Below are positions 7,598 through 38,493 of a stretch of 64,000 nucleotides of DNA, piece by piece. The notes under the pieces are model-generated. The model was given only the letters and a program-made list of their open reading frames with translations. It ran no database searches and was not told where the DNA came from. The translations under genes and the position numbers were made by a program. This DNA comes from a phage, in the sequence record OZ346219.1. One strand, written 5' to 3'. How positions within the stretch are numbered: position 1 is the stretch's first letter; each line of letters opens with the position of its first letter.

Positions 7598-9067
7598 CTA
7601 TTCCCCATTACCATTATACTTTCTTTGCTTAGTTATCCACACTCTAACCATCTCTACAGATTCGCCGTCAGACGGATCAAGAGTTTTTCCTTTTTTCTTC
7701 ATGCGGTACTTAAATCCGTTAAATCTTGCATTCTCTTGCTCGTTAAAGTCGAACATCTTTTTAAATGATTTTCGCCCTTTACGTTCACCACATTCTAGCG
7801 GAATCATTCGATCTGTTATTACATTGGCATTAGGCAGAAACGTTTTTAGATAATCCACCAACGCCCAATCAGGAACATATAGATTAACATTCTCCTTGCT
7901 CTCGTTGTCTCTCAGGTTACAACGCAAACATAATTGAAATGCTGGTTCCAGATAATCAGACACATGACGCGCTTTCAAAAACTCGTTTGTCGGGAGATCA
8001 CAACTATTAGCAAGACCTTTTAAAATATCAATCTCCCATCGTTGAGGGTTAAAGCTGAACATCACAGCAACATTTTTATGATGAATGTAAGAGTTAAGAC
8101 CATAAGACCCGTAAGGTATCCGCTCACCAATACCATTTGTACACGCTTCACGGTCCCGATTCACGGTATAAATGAAGTCATCGCCACATTCATTTTTAAC
8201 CATATCAACAAGACGTTCAAAGGTATTGTTTGTTTCTGACTGGTGACGCGACCATCGTTCAGAGTCCGTCATAAGGATGATATTAACTCTATCTGTATTT
8301 TTATACTCTTTGAAATATAGTCTGGATTCTAGCGCACTCGGAACAAAATCGCAATTTGCATAGTATCGTAGATACTTCCCACTATATGTATCAAAGAGAT
8401 TTGCACATGCTATCGTAACCTTTTTAAAGTCTCCCCACGTACCGTGTTTGTTATCGTTCAAGAAAACAATTTTCGACCCATTCTTCCGGTGTCCTTCGTT
8501 ATGTTTTACCATAACGTTGATTTTCTTCTCTAATAACGCCTCATAAAGCCCTCTAAGAGAAGAATCGATCATATCAGTACCATCCTTCGCACTTTCTATC
8601 TTTTCTTTGATAGCGGCCTTCTCAGAGTCTTTTAGAACTAAGTTCTGTAGGCATTCCGATTCGTCGGCGATTGGTTCGCAATGCTTAGTGATAAGTTCAA
8701 GATTAGACTTAAACGGATACTCATTAAATTCAACCAGTTGAGGAACTTCATCAATGTAAAGAGCATAATCACCAAACATTTTTGAACGTTCCATATTAGA
8801 TAACGCTGTATGTGTAATGAATATCACATCAGCACCATCTTTAACTGATTGCATTATCGACGCTTGCACTGTCTTAAGGCTTCTTAGTCTTGTGCTATCA
8901 ATCAAGACAGCACGACCGCCCATTCTTTTAAACTTATTGTAAGATTGTTCACTTAAAACACGAGATGGCGAAGCAATAACCGCTTTTTCTTTTGTCTCTA
9001 GGACGTGGGAAAGTATAGCATCAGTTTTCCCCGCCGCTGGCAATGCGATTAATGTTTCAATCTTCAT
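7598..9067 (-). CDS. Uncharacterised P-loop NTPase (489 aa)
   Basis: Walker A-like LPAAGKT near N-terminus and Walker B-like ALYIDEV about 95 aa later; ATG overlaps stop of upstream ORF (TAATG); no match to T4 helicases/ligase that I can recall. Confidence 0.6.
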   Translation of the reverse strand: MKIETLIALPAAGKTDAILSHVLETKEKAVIASPSRVLSEQSYNKFKRMGGRAVLIDSTRLRSLKTVQASIMQSVKDGADVIFITHTALSNMERSKMFGDYALYIDEVPQLVEFNEYPFKSNLELITKHCEPIADESECLQNLVLKDSEKAAIKEKIESAKDGTDMIDSSLRGLYEALLEKKINVMVKHNEGHRKNGSKIVFLNDNKHGTWGDFKKVTIACANLFDTYSGKYLRYYANCDFVPSALESRLYFKEYKNTDRVNIILMTDSERWSRHQSETNNTFERLVDMVKNECGDDFIYTVNRDREACTNGIGERIPYGSYGLNSYIHHKNVAVMFSFNPQRWEIDILKGLANSCDLPTNEFLKARHVSDYLEPAFQLCLRCNLRDNESKENVNLYVPDWALVDYLKTFLPNANVITDRMIPLECGERKGRKSFKKMFDFNEQENARFNGFKYRMKKKGKTLDPSDGESVEMVRVWITKQRKYNGNGE

Positions 9068-9354
9068 TAGAAACCCTTACGTCGTTCTTTCTGGCATTTC
9101 TTGATCATTTTATCAGAAATTTCGCGCTTAGGTGCAATCTCTTTCACACCGAAAGCACTAATGCCAAATTCAGAGAGAATATATTCAACCAACAATTCAC
9201 GCACACGCGCTTTACCGATATTCACGCCGTTATTTTTCAGATATGTCTGGCCTTCGACTTGCATCAGATCTAAATCTGCGTCGGTAATATTGATTTCTTC
9301 CATGCGCCCAAATCGAGAATAAACCATGTGTGCGATTGCATTGTGTACTAACAT
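9067..9354 (-). CDS. Hypothetical protein translationally coupled to the P-loop NTPase
   Basis: ORF with GAGGAA SD and ATG at 9354; stop overlaps NTPase start. Confidence 0.5.
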   Translation of the reverse strand: MLVHNAIAHMVYSRFGRMEEINITDADLDLMQVEGQTYLKNNGVNIGKARVRELLVEYILSEFGISAFGVKEIAPKREISDKMIKKCQKERRKGF

Positions 9355-9375
9355 AATATATTCCTCACTCAAGAA

Positions 9376-9534
9376 TTACTTAATGATACTTACTTTACCA
9401 GATCCATGACAATGAGCGCAACACCCATCACCACGCAATCCTGTTCCGTTACAGTGTTTACACTTCTTCAACGGTAAAGCCATTATAGCAAATAAAGCAA
9501 TAATGAATACCGAAACTAAATTCTCAATAATCAT
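9376..9534 (-). CDS. Micro-protein (52 aa) with N-terminal hydrophobic helix and DnaJ-type CxxCxGxG zinc-finger repeats
   Basis: Hand-translated: MIIENLVSVFIIALFAIMALPLKKCKHCNGTGLRGDGCCAHCHGSGKVSIIK; not in ORF track (<60 aa). Confidence 0.4.
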   Translation of the reverse strand: MIIENLVSVFIIALFAIMALPLKKCKHCNGTGLRGDGCCAHCHGSGKVSIIK

Positions 9535-9793
9535 AAATCGCCCTCAGTTCTTTATAGCCTCCAATGTGCTCGTTGTCAATGAATATCTGGGGGTATACAA
9601 ACCGGAGGCTCTTTGAGTTCAGCCTCCCCGCCAGTTCTTCAATCATATCACGGTCGGGAATAATGTCAACCCCGACCTGCTTGAATACTGGTTTAAGTGT
9701 ATATGGAATACCCAGATCATCCAGTAGCTTCATTGCACTAATACAACCATAACAATGATAAGCCTCTTTCGGTATACCGTATATCTCGATCAT
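9524..9793 (-). CDS. Glutaredoxin-like protein (NrdH-like)
   Basis: CYGC redox motif near N-terminus, about 89 aa, C-terminal IGGY motif; position corresponds to T4 nrdH. Confidence 0.7.
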   Translation of the reverse strand: MIEIYGIPKEAYHCYGCISAMKLLDDLGIPYTLKPVFKQVGVDIIPDRDMIEELAGRLNSKSLRFVYPQIFIDNEHIGGYKELRAIYDY

Positions 9794-10266
9794 TTCTCAG
9801 CCTTTAATCTTTCTAGTTCTTCTTCCAGTTCCTTGATCCGTTGGTCACGTTCAAAGTCACGCTGCAACTTAGTGGCGAATACTCGTTTAAACTGATTGTA
9901 ATCATCGATTTTAAACACTTCTTCTTCGCCATAGCGACGCACAGAAACTTCGTAGTTATTGAAGAATTGTTGCATCATTGCTTCGGATGATAGTTCTGCT
10001 GATACTACTTTAAAATATTGATCTTCGGTAGGTGAAAACCAATTACAAGCATAAAGATAAACCTTTTCATTGTCTGGACACTGGTAAGCCTTACCATCGA
10101 TTTCAATCACAGAAACATATTCAGGTATAGTAGATGAATCAATAGCTAAGACTTTAAACTGACGGTCCCCGATAAACTCGGAGATCACACGATTCGCATC
10201 ACTGGTTGCAAAGGCTTTACGCGCTTGTTCGTTTTTCCACTGATAGGTCATGCCAACAACAAACAT
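9790..10266 (-). CDS. Paralogue family member 4 (divergent WEVGKTY-domain protein)
   Basis: N-terminus MFVVGMTYQWK aligns to MKWEVGKTYTWK of neighbours; C-terminal coiled-coil tail. Confidence 0.55.
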   Translation of the reverse strand: MFVVGMTYQWKNEQARKAFATSDANRVISEFIGDRQFKVLAIDSSTIPEYVSVIEIDGKAYQCPDNEKVYLYACNWFSPTEDQYFKVVSAELSSEAMMQQFFNNYEVSVRRYGEEEVFKIDDYNQFKRVFATKLQRDFERDQRIKELEEELERLKAEK

Positions 10267-25992: not shown

Positions 25993-26024
25993 AAAAACGA
26001 AAAAGCCACCCTTTCGGATGGCTT
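25993..26024 (-). terminator. Rho-independent terminator
   Basis: AGCCAUCCGAAAGGGUGGCU hairpin + UUUUUCGUUUUU. Confidence 0.6.
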
Positions 26025-27902: not shown

Positions 27903-28137
27903 TTTCTATCACCTCCACCCAATCAGGCGTTTCCTGAAAGACTCCTTCGCCTTCATGATGGTCGCAACCTTTATTGCTGCAATACATCCACCAATCCCAC
28001 ATTCCCCACGGTAAACGCTGCATATCGTCGTTACAGCAAGTGAAGATGATAGGCCAACCACATCTAACACATCGGCAGTTTTCTTTCATGTGAGCGGTAT
28101 TAGGCTTCTTCATAGATGACTCCAATATAATCGACAT
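27895..28137 (-). CDS. Cys/Trp-rich small protein
   Basis: 80-aa ORF with CRCVRCGW...CC...CSNKGCDHHEG. Confidence 0.4.
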   Translation of the reverse strand: MSIILESSMKKPNTAHMKENCRCVRCGWPIIFTCCNDDMQRLPWGMWDWWMYCSNKGCDHHEGEGVFQETPDWVEVIENA

Positions 28138-28340
28138 TTACATTTAGGGCAATGCGGTTCTTTAATATAATACCCGTCTGTCTTTGGAACACTAACAGGA
28201 GCGGTTTTTATATTGTATTCGGTGAAACAACGAAAACAAGTTACGTTTTCTACAGACTGACGTTTCACCCAATCACCGGAATATAGATCATTTTTATTTG
28301 TCATATTCAACCACCACAATGTTAATGTCTGGAGTAGCAA
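28110..28340 (-). CDS. Zinc-ribbon-like small protein
   Basis: CFRCF...CPKCKC pattern. Confidence 0.4.
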   Translation of the reverse strand: MLLQTLTLWWLNMTNKNDLYSGDWVKRQSVENVTCFRCFTEYNIKTAPVSVPKTDGYYIKEPHCPKCKCRLYWSHL

Positions 28341-28749
28341 TATTAATGATCTCTTCTACACATTCCCACTCAAGGCCACCGATACCGCAACCGATTTTAG
28401 GAATATAGAAAGGCTGTATAGCACCCTCAAAAACATCATTGAGAGACTCAAATCCTTTCAGGATAGCACCATATTCAGCATTTGGACCCGGTCGGAATTG
28501 GGTATAGAGATTCACCCCGCACCAGTTATAACCATTAACTTGATGCGTCCAGACACTAAACCCACCCAGCTTTTCGACCTTACCGCGAGAAGTTTGCTTG
28601 TCAATCTCTAACGCTTGCGGGAACTCTTTCGCGATCTTCGCAGCAATACCAGCACCCATAGTATGAAAACAATTACAACCATGAATTAAATGACCGTTTC
28701 CTTGTTTAAACAGGGCGATGAGATCGCCCTTTACAGTATCAATAATCAT
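28294..28749 (-). CDS. Macrodomain protein, TARG1/OARD1/DarG-like (ADP-ribose processing)
   Basis: VKGDLIALFKQGNGHLIHGCNCFHTMGAGIAAKI and IPKIGCGIGGLEW parallel TARG1 VKGDLFA...HCISEDCRMGAGIA and PRIGCGLDRLQW as recalled. Confidence 0.65.
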   Translation of the reverse strand: MIIDTVKGDLIALFKQGNGHLIHGCNCFHTMGAGIAAKIAKEFPQALEIDKQTSRGKVEKLGGFSVWTHQVNGYNWCGVNLYTQFRPGPNAEYGAILKGFESLNDVFEGAIQPFYIPKIGCGIGGLEWECVEEIINIATPDINIVVVEYDK

Positions 28750-28764
28750 AATATAAACCTCTCA

Positions 28765-31085: not shown

Positions 31086-31532
31086 CTAACCACGGGTATA
31101 GTGTTCCAGAACAACGGTCAGATGAATATATTCTAATAAATCTTTCCAAAAGTCAACATCTGGTTCTTCCGGCATACCGTTTTTCTTTGCCTCTTCACGA
31201 GCGAGTTTAACCCGCTCGTAGAGATCTTTCAATTCTTCCCGCACATTATCAAAGGTTCTTTCTCCTAACTTACACGCTAAAATAGAAGAACGTCGCGCGA
31301 GCGGGAATTGTAGATCACCTGTCTGATAGATTTCAAGTAGCTGATAACCAACACGCAGAGCATGAGAAAGATCTTTCCAGTTACTGAAATACTTTTCAGA
31401 TTTGGCTACCTGCTTTTTGAGATAGCCAGACAAACCCCACATACCAACATGATAGAATTTATCTCGATGTGTTCGGATGTATTCCCATTCTCTGGAGGAT
31501 TCAATCAACATGTTACTAGGAGCGTGCACCAT
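31086..31532 (-). CDS. Hypothetical protein
   Basis: 148-aa ORF, start uncertain (overlaps HNH gene end). Confidence 0.4.
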   Translation of the reverse strand: MVHAPSNMLIESSREWEYIRTHRDKFYHVGMWGLSGYLKKQVAKSEKYFSNWKDLSHALRVGYQLLEIYQTGDLQFPLARRSSILACKLGERTFDNVREELKDLYERVKLAREEAKKNGMPEEPDVDFWKDLLEYIHLTVVLEHYTRG

Positions 31533-31963
31533 GTCAATTTAGCCATGTGATGCATTTCACCCCAACATTTATTAAGACCTGTCTCTTTAGCATGAATGAG
31601 ATTTTCAGATTTGCTAGTCCATTCCAAATTATACAGGTCAAAATTTCTTTTGTTTCCATCCTTATGATTCACTTCCGGCAAATTATAAGGATTCGGTATA
31701 AACGCAACAGCAAGAACTCTATGCATATTTAAAGTTTGCTTTATTCCTAACGGTCGGTTACGAACAGTAAACTTTGCATAGTTGTTAGTCTCAGGAATCC
31801 ATATAGAAATAAGATTACCGCTTTTCTTATTCCTGATTTTACCATAAGAACTAACTTCAAACAAGTCTATCGGGTGAAAATAATCAATAACTTTCCACTC
31901 TTCATCATGGTCATCACAATATCGTTTCACATCATACCCTCTTCTATAAAAACTTAAAAACAT
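31505..31963 (-). CDS. HNH homing endonuclease-like protein
   Basis: EVNHKDGNKRNFDLYNLEW...HHMAKLT HNH signature; start uncertain (track start is TTG). Confidence 0.65.
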   Translation of the reverse strand: MFLSFYRRGYDVKRYCDDHDEEWKVIDYFHPIDLFEVSSYGKIRNKKSGNLISIWIPETNNYAKFTVRNRPLGIKQTLNMHRVLAVAFIPNPYNLPEVNHKDGNKRNFDLYNLEWTSKSENLIHAKETGLNKCWGEMHHMAKLTWCTLLVTC

Positions 31964-31977
31964 AATATCAGATTTTA

Positions 31978-32005
31978 TAGAAAAGGGCAACCCCTAAAGG
32001 TTGCC
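31978..32005 (-). terminator. Rho-independent terminator downstream of endolysin
   Basis: GGCAACCUUUAGGGGUUGCC hairpin + CUUUUCU. Confidence 0.5.
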
Positions 32006-32012
32006 ACATAGT

Positions 32013-32402
32013 TTATTTTGGATCTTGGTATTTGCTGTGTGGTAGCTGAAAATGAACACCGTCTTTAAACGATACCCAATCCCCACCCCATTCAACAGGA
32101 ACACCCAATTCTCGACCAGCTTGTTTAAATGCATCAGCGATCATGCGGTAGTATTTCATGTTCCATGTATCCTTATCTTTCGGATACGCCACAACGTCAA
32201 CCGCGAAACCGTGAAGATGACGAGATTTCATAGTCTTAGATTTACCTTCCGCAACATATTTCTTTTGCGTTTCTAGACTACGCACACCTTCCGTAATACC
32301 AAAATCGACCGGAGTCAGTTCTAATGCACGATGAACGACTTTTACCAGGTCTGGATGTACACCAACAAGCCGATCTTTGCTTCTTTGAGATAATTTAAAC
32401 AT
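32013..32402 (-). CDS. Endolysin, peptidase M15 family (L-alanyl-D-glutamate peptidase type)
   Basis: SRHLHGFAVDV and DGVHFQL zinc-binding motifs; 129 aa. Confidence 0.7.
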   Translation of the reverse strand: MFKLSQRSKDRLVGVHPDLVKVVHRALELTPVDFGITEGVRSLETQKKYVAEGKSKTMKSRHLHGFAVDVVAYPKDKDTWNMKYYRMIADAFKQAGRELGVPVEWGGDWVSFKDGVHFQLPHSKYQDPK

Positions 32403-36911: not shown

Positions 36912-37154
36912 TCATAGCGTACAAAGCCATTTAAAAGCACCACATAAAGCGATCAAAAGACTAGGTATAAACGAGATTACAACAAGACCAAAAAAATCAT
37001 CTAAGGTAACACCGGAATAGCTACCTACTGTAACAACACCGATCATCAGACACAGAAAGAAAACAAATGCAAGCATAAACAAAGTATTGCTAAACAGTTT
37101 AGTGATCATTAGACACCCCACGACGATCAATTTCAAAAACTTTTTTATCATCAA
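36912..37154 (-). CDS. Small hydrophobic membrane protein
   Basis: 80 aa. Confidence 0.4.
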   Translation of the reverse strand: MMIKKFLKLIVVGCLMITKLFSNTLFMLAFVFFLCLMIGVVTVGSYSGVTLDDFFGLVVISFIPSLLIALCGAFKWLCTL

Positions 37155-37302
37155 CGAAGCATGTCACAACTGCCTCGTTGACTTCCGCAAATTGTTGTGT
37201 TACCCACTTAAGGTCAGAGCGAAACAATGTTCTATTAATAACAAATGTTTTACCGCTCTTATCCTTACCCATAAATTTTGCTTTAACCATATCAAATTCC
37301 AT
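37099..37302 (-). CDS. Hypothetical small protein
   Basis: 67-aa ORF, start uncertain. Confidence 0.35.
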   Translation of the reverse strand: MEFDMVKAKFMGKDKSGKTFVINRTLFRSDLKWVTQQFAEVNEAVVTCFVDDKKVFEIDRRGVSNDH

Positions 37303-38022: not shown

Positions 38023-38493
38023 TTACAGTTTGGTCGTCCACTCCAGGTCTAGATCTTCGACATACTCATGAGATCGGACAATCTCTAAATCGAACTCTAG
38101 GTCAGTACCAAATTTACGCGCACCAACATCATAAGAAAGCGTGATATGCGGTACATATTCAGGATAATCCCACGTCGCACCTAAAGCAGTGCCTATATCG
38201 TGTCTGAATTGCATGTAGTCGCTTTCAAATGCCAACACAAGCGCATTAGTACCGGATTGAGTTTCAAACACTTTAAGATGGCATAGAGAGCCTAAAAACT
38301 TTTCACCCTCTTCTGGTATAAACGGAACATAGACACGAGAATATAAGATAGTGCTATGCAGTTTATCACGAGGAACGGCATTAGGCAGATCGTAGAACTC
38401 CTGCAATTTTTCAATGCGGTCTAGTGTATCCTCAGTGAATTTAACCGCCGCATATGTACCTTTAACGGATTCTCTAAACGGGGTCATAATCAA
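38023..38493 (-). CDS. acb1: 2H phosphoesterase, Acb1-like (T4 57B position; cyclic-oligonucleotide phosphodiesterase candidate)
   Basis: Two H-x-T/S motifs (HSTIL, HITLS) about 90 aa apart; 156 aa; immediately downstream of gp57A-like gene as in T4. Confidence 0.6.
   Translation of the reverse strand: MIMTPFRESVKGTYAAVKFTEDTLDRIEKLQEFYDLPNAVPRDKLHSTILYSRVYVPFIPEEGEKFLGSLCHLKVFETQSGTNALVLAFESDYMQFRHDIGTALGATWDYPEYVPHITLSYDVGARKFGTDLEFDLEIVRSHEYVEDLDLEWTTKL

Follow-up and report, generated by a model that had tools for sequence, protein, structure and literature searches.

Tk.4 of an RB49-like phage, a macrodomain of the TARG1/DarG clade with glutamine at the catalytic lysine position, is a probable anti-DarTG2 hydrolase

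DarTG systems stop phages through ADP-ribosylation of DNA, and T-even phages counter them in several layers, namely AdfA (T4 gp61.2), the NADAR protein AdfN (T4 gp30.3) and the macrodomain protein AdfM, or Tk.4. AdfA and AdfN have folds unrelated to that of Tk.4; AdfN is an orphan antitoxin-like hydrolase too, but it is specific for guanosine-linked ADP-ribose (DarTG1) and does not counter DarTG2. T4 devoid of both adfA and adfN was still resistant to DarTG2, and a further factor was predicted (PMC11825919). In HIDEN-SEQ, a transposon sequencing approach applied to T4, tk.4 was the single significant hit on a host expressing DarTG2; a clean tk.4 knockout was DarTG2-sensitive, and the gene was dispensable on K-12 (bioRxiv 10.1101/2025.11.20.689424). 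The authors of this preprint (November 2025) described a structural likeness to DarG of M. tuberculosis (Mtb), renamed the gene adfM (anti-DarT factor macrodomain) and judged from genetic evidence that enzymatic removal of ADP-ribose from DNA by T4 Tk.4 "seems likely" (bioRxiv 10.1101/2025.11.20.689424). The anti-DarTG2 role of tk.4 is thus already published for the T4 ortholog, the allele for which this function was established, through genetics. A stand-alone macrodomain of chimalliviruses, PhiKZ gp104, counters DarTG2 as well and removes ADP-ribose from DNA in vitro (PMC13309987). It is also called AdfM, the same name having been given independently to T4 Tk.4 (bioRxiv, November 2025) and to PhiKZ gp104 (Cell Rep 2026), and according to the Cell Rep paper no macrodomain Adf had been reported before (PMC13309987). 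In the literature on Tk.4 and AdfM, made up, apart from unrelated mentions, of the HIDEN-SEQ genetics and of the PhiKZ paper on the other lineage, we found no biochemistry of the Tk.4 lineage, and no phage macrodomain is among the enzymes tested in two papers on hydrolase specificity.

In Streptomyces coelicolor, SCO6735 consists of an ALC1-like macrodomain that stands alone and has a glutamine (Gln85) in place of the catalytic lysine; it protects E. coli against DarT and cleaves thymidine-linked ADP-ribose on ssDNA faster than DarG or TARG1 (PMC9411070). The Q85A, Q85E and N27S variants are inactive, and K34E nearly abolishes the activity on DNA (PMC9411070). In the mechanism proposed from mutagenesis and molecular dynamics, the backbone oxygen of Val25 holds a water molecule and Gln85, locked by Asn27, positions the distal ribose (PMC9411070).

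The DNA analyzed here, hereafter the window, is a stretch of 64,000 nucleotides of a phage (sequence record OZ346219.1). The 4 kb surrounding tk.4 are 98-98.6% identical to RB49-like Escherichia phages (Krischvirus, Straboviridae), 58 of the 59 matching records covering at least 80% of this stretch. Judged by this identity, the window is from a Krischvirus, an RB49-like T-even phage. Its tk.4 shares 99.3% nucleotide identity with RB49 tk.4 (RB49p091), annotated as "phosphatase; contains A1pp phosphatase motif". The order of the minus-strand genes (tk, three small ORFs, tk.4, vs, vs.1, regB) is common to the window, RB49, T4 and T2, and since it is the same in T4 and T2, the window gene is the positional ortholog of T4 tk.4. 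The original prediction had placed a 151-aa ORF with macrodomain motifs at this locus, and its coordinates, ATG, TAA and motifs were all verified on the minus strand, a strand that the prediction had left unstated. The features of the locus are as follows:

28294..28749, minus strand: tk.4 / adfM coding sequence, a single macrodomain of 151 aa (ORF listing; ATG start, TAA stop)
28758..28763, minus strand: Shine-Dalgarno sequence GAGAGG, 8 nt 5' of the tk.4 ATG, within the 15-nt spacer past the vs stop codon
29087..29115, minus strand: candidate early promoter TTGACA-17-TATGAT with an upstream TG, within vs (consensus match, 11/12)
28110..28304, minus strand: RB49p090, 64 aa, with a phage zinc-binding domain, 3' of tk.4 (Pfam Phage_zn_bind_2, E 1.1e-23)

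The candidate promoter is a near-consensus extended -10 site (TTGACA, 17 nt, TG-n-TATGAT) about 340 nt 5' of tk.4. Between positions 26000 and 33000, 10 of the 11 top-scoring promoter-like sites are on the minus strand, and several strong sigma-70-like matches lie upstream of tk.4, which fits early transcription of the gene as far as sequence can tell. The RB49p090 ORF, its ATG included, shares its first 11 nt with the 3' end of tk.4, and both genes are therefore probably co-transcribed. T4 carries the small genes tk.1-tk.3 where the window has this ORF. The ORFs overlapping tk.4 on the plus strand (31-44 aa each) are unsupported and were rejected. As to the transcript, a RIL-seq study of T2 reports pairing between the tk.4 mRNA, mislabelled there as "putative thymidine kinase", and the host sRNA ArcZ, and the Tk.4 protein level is the same in a delta-arcZ host (bioRxiv 10.64898/2026.06.19.733364). 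Searching the whole 64-kb window gave no Rfam match at gathering score and no tRNA gene, and a tblastn search for T4 AdfA, AdfN and Alt homologs found none in the window.

Other parts of the early region were also compared with RB49 and T4. A homolog of RB49 57B, annotated "RNA ligase", lies at 38023-38487 on the minus strand (98.5% nucleotide identity); T4 57B is acb1, an anti-CBASS nuclease (HIDEN-SEQ preprint, bioRxiv 10.1101/2025.11.20.689424), and the window therefore holds, behind a misleading annotation, another known counter-defence gene besides tk.4. It adjoins a homolog of dmd (in T4, an antitoxin-like inhibitor of RnlA/LsoA) at 37099-37302 on the minus strand. In T4, dmd adjoins genes 61 and 41, so the two phages differ in the layout of their early region. 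RB49 nrdC.11 (699 nt) matches the window by its 3' 453 nt only, at 31086-31538 (minus strand). Directly 5' of this remnant is a 161-aa ORF with HNH_3 and NUMOD4 homing-endonuclease domains (31505-31990, minus strand), adjoined on its upstream side by an M15 peptidase endolysin (32013-32402). Between those points, RB49 contains the nrdC.11 N-terminus, vs.6, a small ORF and vs.8 (compared stretch 8089-9911). It seems that nrdC.11 is truncated in the window phage by a homing-endonuclease insertion or replacement.

The fold of Tk.4 was assigned by profile and structure comparisons. Pfam Macro (PF01661) matched residues 22-135 over the complete profile (1-118 of 118; E 6.1e-7, 29.9 bits for a cut-off of 22) and PHROG 335 matched residues 1-151 (E 5.8e-63); an A1pp (macro) domain had already been recorded in tk.4 orthologs by Nolan et al. 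2006 (PMC1524935). These matches go well beyond what chance would give. The AlphaFold2 model built with 115 homologs (mean pLDDT 97.2, pTM 0.92) shows the alpha/beta/alpha macro fold in three layers and superposes on macrodomains of known structure. Foldseek against the PDB returned TARG1 at the top (TM 0.76-0.82, 28-30% identity), followed by Poa1p, DarG of T. aquaticus and M. tuberculosis (TM 0.78-0.80), BT1257 and SCO6735; the entry 5M3I, named "RNase III inhibitor", is the macrodomain of M. tuberculosis DarG (PMC5179494). The family profile searched against PDB sequences recovered BT1257 (7.6e-16), SCO6735 (1.8e-14), TARG1 (1.8e-14), Mtb DarG (3.3e-13) and Poa1p (1.8e-12), all with 47-62 bits, a range in which subclasses are poorly separated by overall similarity. 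The closest structures belong to the ALC1-like / TARG1-like class, clearly apart from the MacroD, viral, PARG and macroH2A types. Tk.4 is thus a member of the TARG1/DarG (ALC1-like) clade; the original prediction had proposed this assignment, to be checked by comparing the predicted structure with TARG1 and DarG, and it is borne out by the Pfam, PHROG, profile and Foldseek matches. The loops expected to bind ADP-ribose (MGAGIA, GxGxGG and D9) are conserved in sequence.

The residues of the putative active site were located by alignment. VKGDL corresponds to residues 6-10 of the 151-aa translation, HGCNCFHTMGAGIA to residues 23-36 and IPKIGCGIGGLEW to residues 116-128, and five elements were delineated:

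28720..28731, minus strand: K7-G-D9-L, the N-terminal motif (G8 and D9 nearly invariant in the alignment)
28669..28683, minus strand: the H23-G24-C25-N26-C27 motif (alignments)
28642..28659, minus strand: M31-G-A33-G-I-A, loop 1, the substrate-binding loop (alignments)
28498..28512, minus strand: N80-L-Y82-T83-Q84 (alignments)
28366..28401, minus strand: P117-K-I-G120-C-G122-I-G124-G125-L-E-W128, the glycine-rich diphosphate-binding loop (alignments)

Conservation was counted in two sets, one of 121 sequences (the query and its 120 closest cluster representatives) and one of 137 other representatives from a clustering at 50% identity. Asp9, a conserved N-terminal acidic residue which we take to contact adenine as in macrodomains in general, is D or N in 135 of the 137 representatives. 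N26 is invariant (121/121 and 137/137, 258/258 together) and matches DarG N22, PhiKZ AdfM N23 and SCO6735 N27, H23 and G24 matching SCO6735 H24 and V25; PhiKZ N23 has itself been equated with N22 of Taq DarG, near the distal ribose (Cell Rep 2026, PMC13309987). A33, at the position of DarG K29 and SCO6735 K34, is Ala in 109/121 sequences, Lys being present in 2/121 and 2/137. In the glycine-rich loop, G120 and G122 are invariant and correspond to SCO6735 G126 and G128. The Tk.4 family also has invariant residues of its own, D50, N80 and Y82, together with K60 in 125/137.

The main difference concerns the catalytic lysine. Gln84 occupies the position of this residue in TARG1 (K84), DarG (K80) and PhiKZ AdfM (K78), and corresponds to Gln85 of SCO6735. 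This register was obtained concordantly in three independent sequence alignments, made with phmmer (Mtb DarG, TARG1), MAFFT (TARG1, PhiKZ gp104) and the family HMM (TARG1, BT1257, SCO6735), and it is from these, not from measured distances, that Gln84 is placed with respect to the ligand pocket. PTKK of Mtb DarG aligns with YTQF, and a direct count places N23 and K78 of PhiKZ gp104 in the columns of N26 and Q84. Glutamine is present in 118/121 and 136/137 sequences (254/258) and lysine in 0/137; the NLYTQ motif is common to T4 and T2 Tk.4. DarG K80A is inactive and does not rescue cells from DarT (PMC5179494), and since DarG needs K80 where the family has Gln, a Lys-based mechanism is excluded for the Tk.4 family. 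The original prediction had instead stressed an Asp-to-Gly change at the TARG1 catalytic Asp. This alignment holds, as G124 faces TARG1 D125 (GCGLD125RLQW versus GCGIG124GLEW, with Ala or Gly in the family), but the change carries little information because DarG also lacks the TARG1-type Asp and keeps only the Lys (PMC9411070), and the replacement of the catalytic Lys by Gln84 had been overlooked.

The "phosphatase" annotation suggests a metabolite-processing enzyme, an ADP-ribose-1''-phosphate phosphatase or an O-acetyl-ADP-ribose deacetylase. Apart from the inherited name, this reading is based on similarity to Poa1p, which carries Ser, not Gln, at the Gln84 position. The label traces to the old A1pp domain name, not to an assay, and was rejected as a statement of function. 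In T4 the phenotype is confined to DarTG2, and no Appr-1''-p-generating pathway was seen in the window, so that we regard such a metabolite activity as highly improbable.

The glutamine has a direct precedent in SCO6735. The family HMM aligns N-x-Y-T-Q of the Tk.4 family with A-N-M-I-G-Q of SCO6735, and this register is right, because the chain numbers, minus a 20-residue tag, give the published H24, V25, N27, K34, Q85 and K89. H24, V25, N27 and Q85 thereby become H23, G24, N26 and Q84 in the window protein. The loss of TARG1 K84 and D125 and of DarG K80 could also be read as the sign of a non-catalytic protein, a binder as the original prediction also allowed, which would neutralise the toxin by attaching to ADP-ribosylated DNA or to DarT2 itself, with no hydrolysis; indeed, the dead SCO6735 Q85A still blocked DarT in vitro, an effect termed "interaction-inhibition" (PMC9411070). 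Several observations make this improbable. Gln84 and Asn26 are essentially invariant over more than 250 diverse relatives, as is the case for catalytic or positioning residues, and the same Gln is required for hydrolysis by SCO6735 (PMC9411070). An isolated DarG macrodomain bearing K80A fails both to rescue cells and to inhibit DarT (PMC5179494), and a lesion that is bound but not removed would leave replication blocked. Given the SCO6735 precedent, an active hydrolase is thus more likely than a binder, and Tk.4 is treated here as working like SCO6735, without being assigned to the SCO6735/BT1257 subclass.

The ORF, fold, class, orthology and conserved residues observed here, together with the published requirement for the T4 ortholog on DarTG2 hosts and the cleavage of thymidine-ADP-ribose by a Gln-type enzyme of the class, lead us to infer that the window copy does the same job, via hydrolysis. 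We therefore consider the product of tk.4 of this phage to be probably an anti-DarTG2 thymidine-ADP-ribose hydrolase, and the counter-defence against DarTG put forward in the original prediction gains support from the need for its T4 ortholog. The protein would be expressed from the leftward early gene cluster as a stand-alone macrodomain. Host DarT2 puts ADP-ribose on thymidines of single-stranded phage DNA and blocks replication; Tk.4, most likely acting as an orphan antitoxin-like enzyme, would bind the DNA-linked ADP-ribose and hydrolyse the link between ribose and thymine, so that ADP-ribose is set free and the template becomes usable again. Catalysis would probably be of the SCO6735 type and not follow the lysine route of TARG1 and DarG: Gln84, fixed by Asn26, may position the distal ribose, while the Gly24 backbone may hold the water that begins cleavage.

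The family is widespread. It was detected by tblastn in 2,784 of 50,697 phage records (about 5%), including T4-like, rV5-like, Felix O1-like, PaP1-like, Ackermannviridae, Campylobacter and Vibrio phages, and among 1.84 billion representatives a profile search gave 1,339 clusters (clustered at 50% identity) at E <=1e-30 and 8,875 at <=1e-10, placing tk.4 among the commonest accessory genes of large virulent phages. The closest relatives outside Krischvirus are from rV5-like phages (Vequintavirinae; V5, FV3, Bas59) with 66-68% aa identity, as against 44% for T4, T2 and T6, which suggests lateral exchange between Krischvirus and rV5-like phages. The size of the family and its many host genera suggest a general pressure, and could mean that Tk.4 is a broader eraser of ADP-ribose from nucleic acids or proteins, whose main target would be other than DarT2-modified DNA. 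It might remove uracil-linked ADP-ribose from RNA, oppose further ADP-ribosylating defences or tune the modifications that the phage makes with its own Alt/ModA/ModB-type transferases. TARG1, DarG and SCO6735 also hydrolyse uracil-ADP-ribose on ssRNA (PMC13036486), SCO6735 and TARG1 act on protein ADP-ribosylation too (PMC9411070), and the window protein is devoid of residues important for DNA activity in its relatives (DarG K80 and K29, SCO6735 K34 and K89), the missing DNA-contact lysines K29/K34 and K89 fitting another substrate preference. We nevertheless hold this to be unlikely, although such an activity could coexist with the anti-DarTG2 one: T4 tk.4 is dispensable on K-12 and was the single hit specifically on DarTG2, and the window contains no Alt homolog.

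The anti-DarTG2 hydrolase reading can finally be set against each characterized system. The DarG macrodomain (PDB 5M3I, 5M31/5M3E, 7OMU) has Lys80 and Lys29 where the window protein has Gln84 and Ala33, and its Asn22, near the distal ribose, is matched by N26. DarG also has a C-terminal DarT-binding domain and a neighbouring darT, whereas the window protein is single-domain and is flanked by vs and the 64-aa ORF. In the defence-system and NCBI libraries, DarG models were the only matches and covered the macrodomain part alone: 50.5 bits for the NCBIfam equivalog NF048014 (cut-off 250; profile 2-141 of 338) and 53 bits for PADLOC DarG (profile 3-141 of 329). Membership in DarG was ruled out by the equivalog score, the absence of Lys80 and the lack of a DarT-binding domain. 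Human TARG1 / OARD1 (PDB 4J5R/4J5S) has VKGDL, MGAGIA and an equally short mobile loop in common with the window protein, but its K84/D125 catalytic dyad is replaced by Q84 and G124, and membership was ruled out as both catalytic residues are missing.

In the SCO6735/BT1257 subclass (PDB 5E3B, 2FG1), Gln85 is locked by Asn27, an arrangement found again as Q84 and N26. However, the mobile loop of this subclass is 5 residues longer than in DarG and TARG1 and bears K89/K94, which the window protein lacks. The interval from the Gln to the next conserved Tyr (Q84-Y93) is 8 residues in the window protein, as in TARG1, and 13 in SCO6735, and relative to the family profile BT1257 has an insertion of 6 residues and SCO6735 one of 5. 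With K34 and Val25 replaced by Ala33 and Gly24 and an identity of about 24%, membership in this subclass was ruled out by the short loop and the lack of a Lys34 equivalent. Tk.4-type proteins could tentatively be seen as a third mechanistic ALC1-like subtype, with Gln, a short loop of TARG1 length and none of the lysines of DNA activity (K29/K34, K80, K89), in which the family-specific D50, K60, N80 and Y82 would stand in for the missing lysines, but we find this doubtful. If true, no characterized relative need share their chemistry or their range of substrates, and the enzyme could for instance erase thymine- and uracil-ADP-ribose on DNA and RNA and so act against several ADP-ribosylating defences, not only DarTG2.

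PhiKZ AdfM is imported into the phage nucleus, keeps the catalytic Lys78 and shares 26% identity with the window protein; it scores 133-138 bits against DarG models, compared with about 50 (50-53) for the window protein. PhiKZ-type membership was ruled out by this identity, by K78 versus Q84 and by the DarG-model scores, and T4-type and PhiKZ-type AdfM belong to distinct lineages that differ in their catalytic residues. T4 Tk.4 has the same position, PHROG 335 and the HGCNC, NLYTQ and PxIGxGIG motifs including the Gln, with 155 aa instead of 151; T4 and T2 Tk.4 share 44% identity with the window protein over its full length, and because identity is only 44% the specificity of the window copy could differ from that of T4. 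The AdfM layer is thus retained in the RB49 (Krischvirus) branch. The Lys of DarG, TARG1 and PhiKZ AdfM is absent throughout the T4-type AdfM lineage, which resembles the Gln-type SCO6735, so that "DarG-like hydrolysis" is an assumption here; the "phosphatase" label is misleading.
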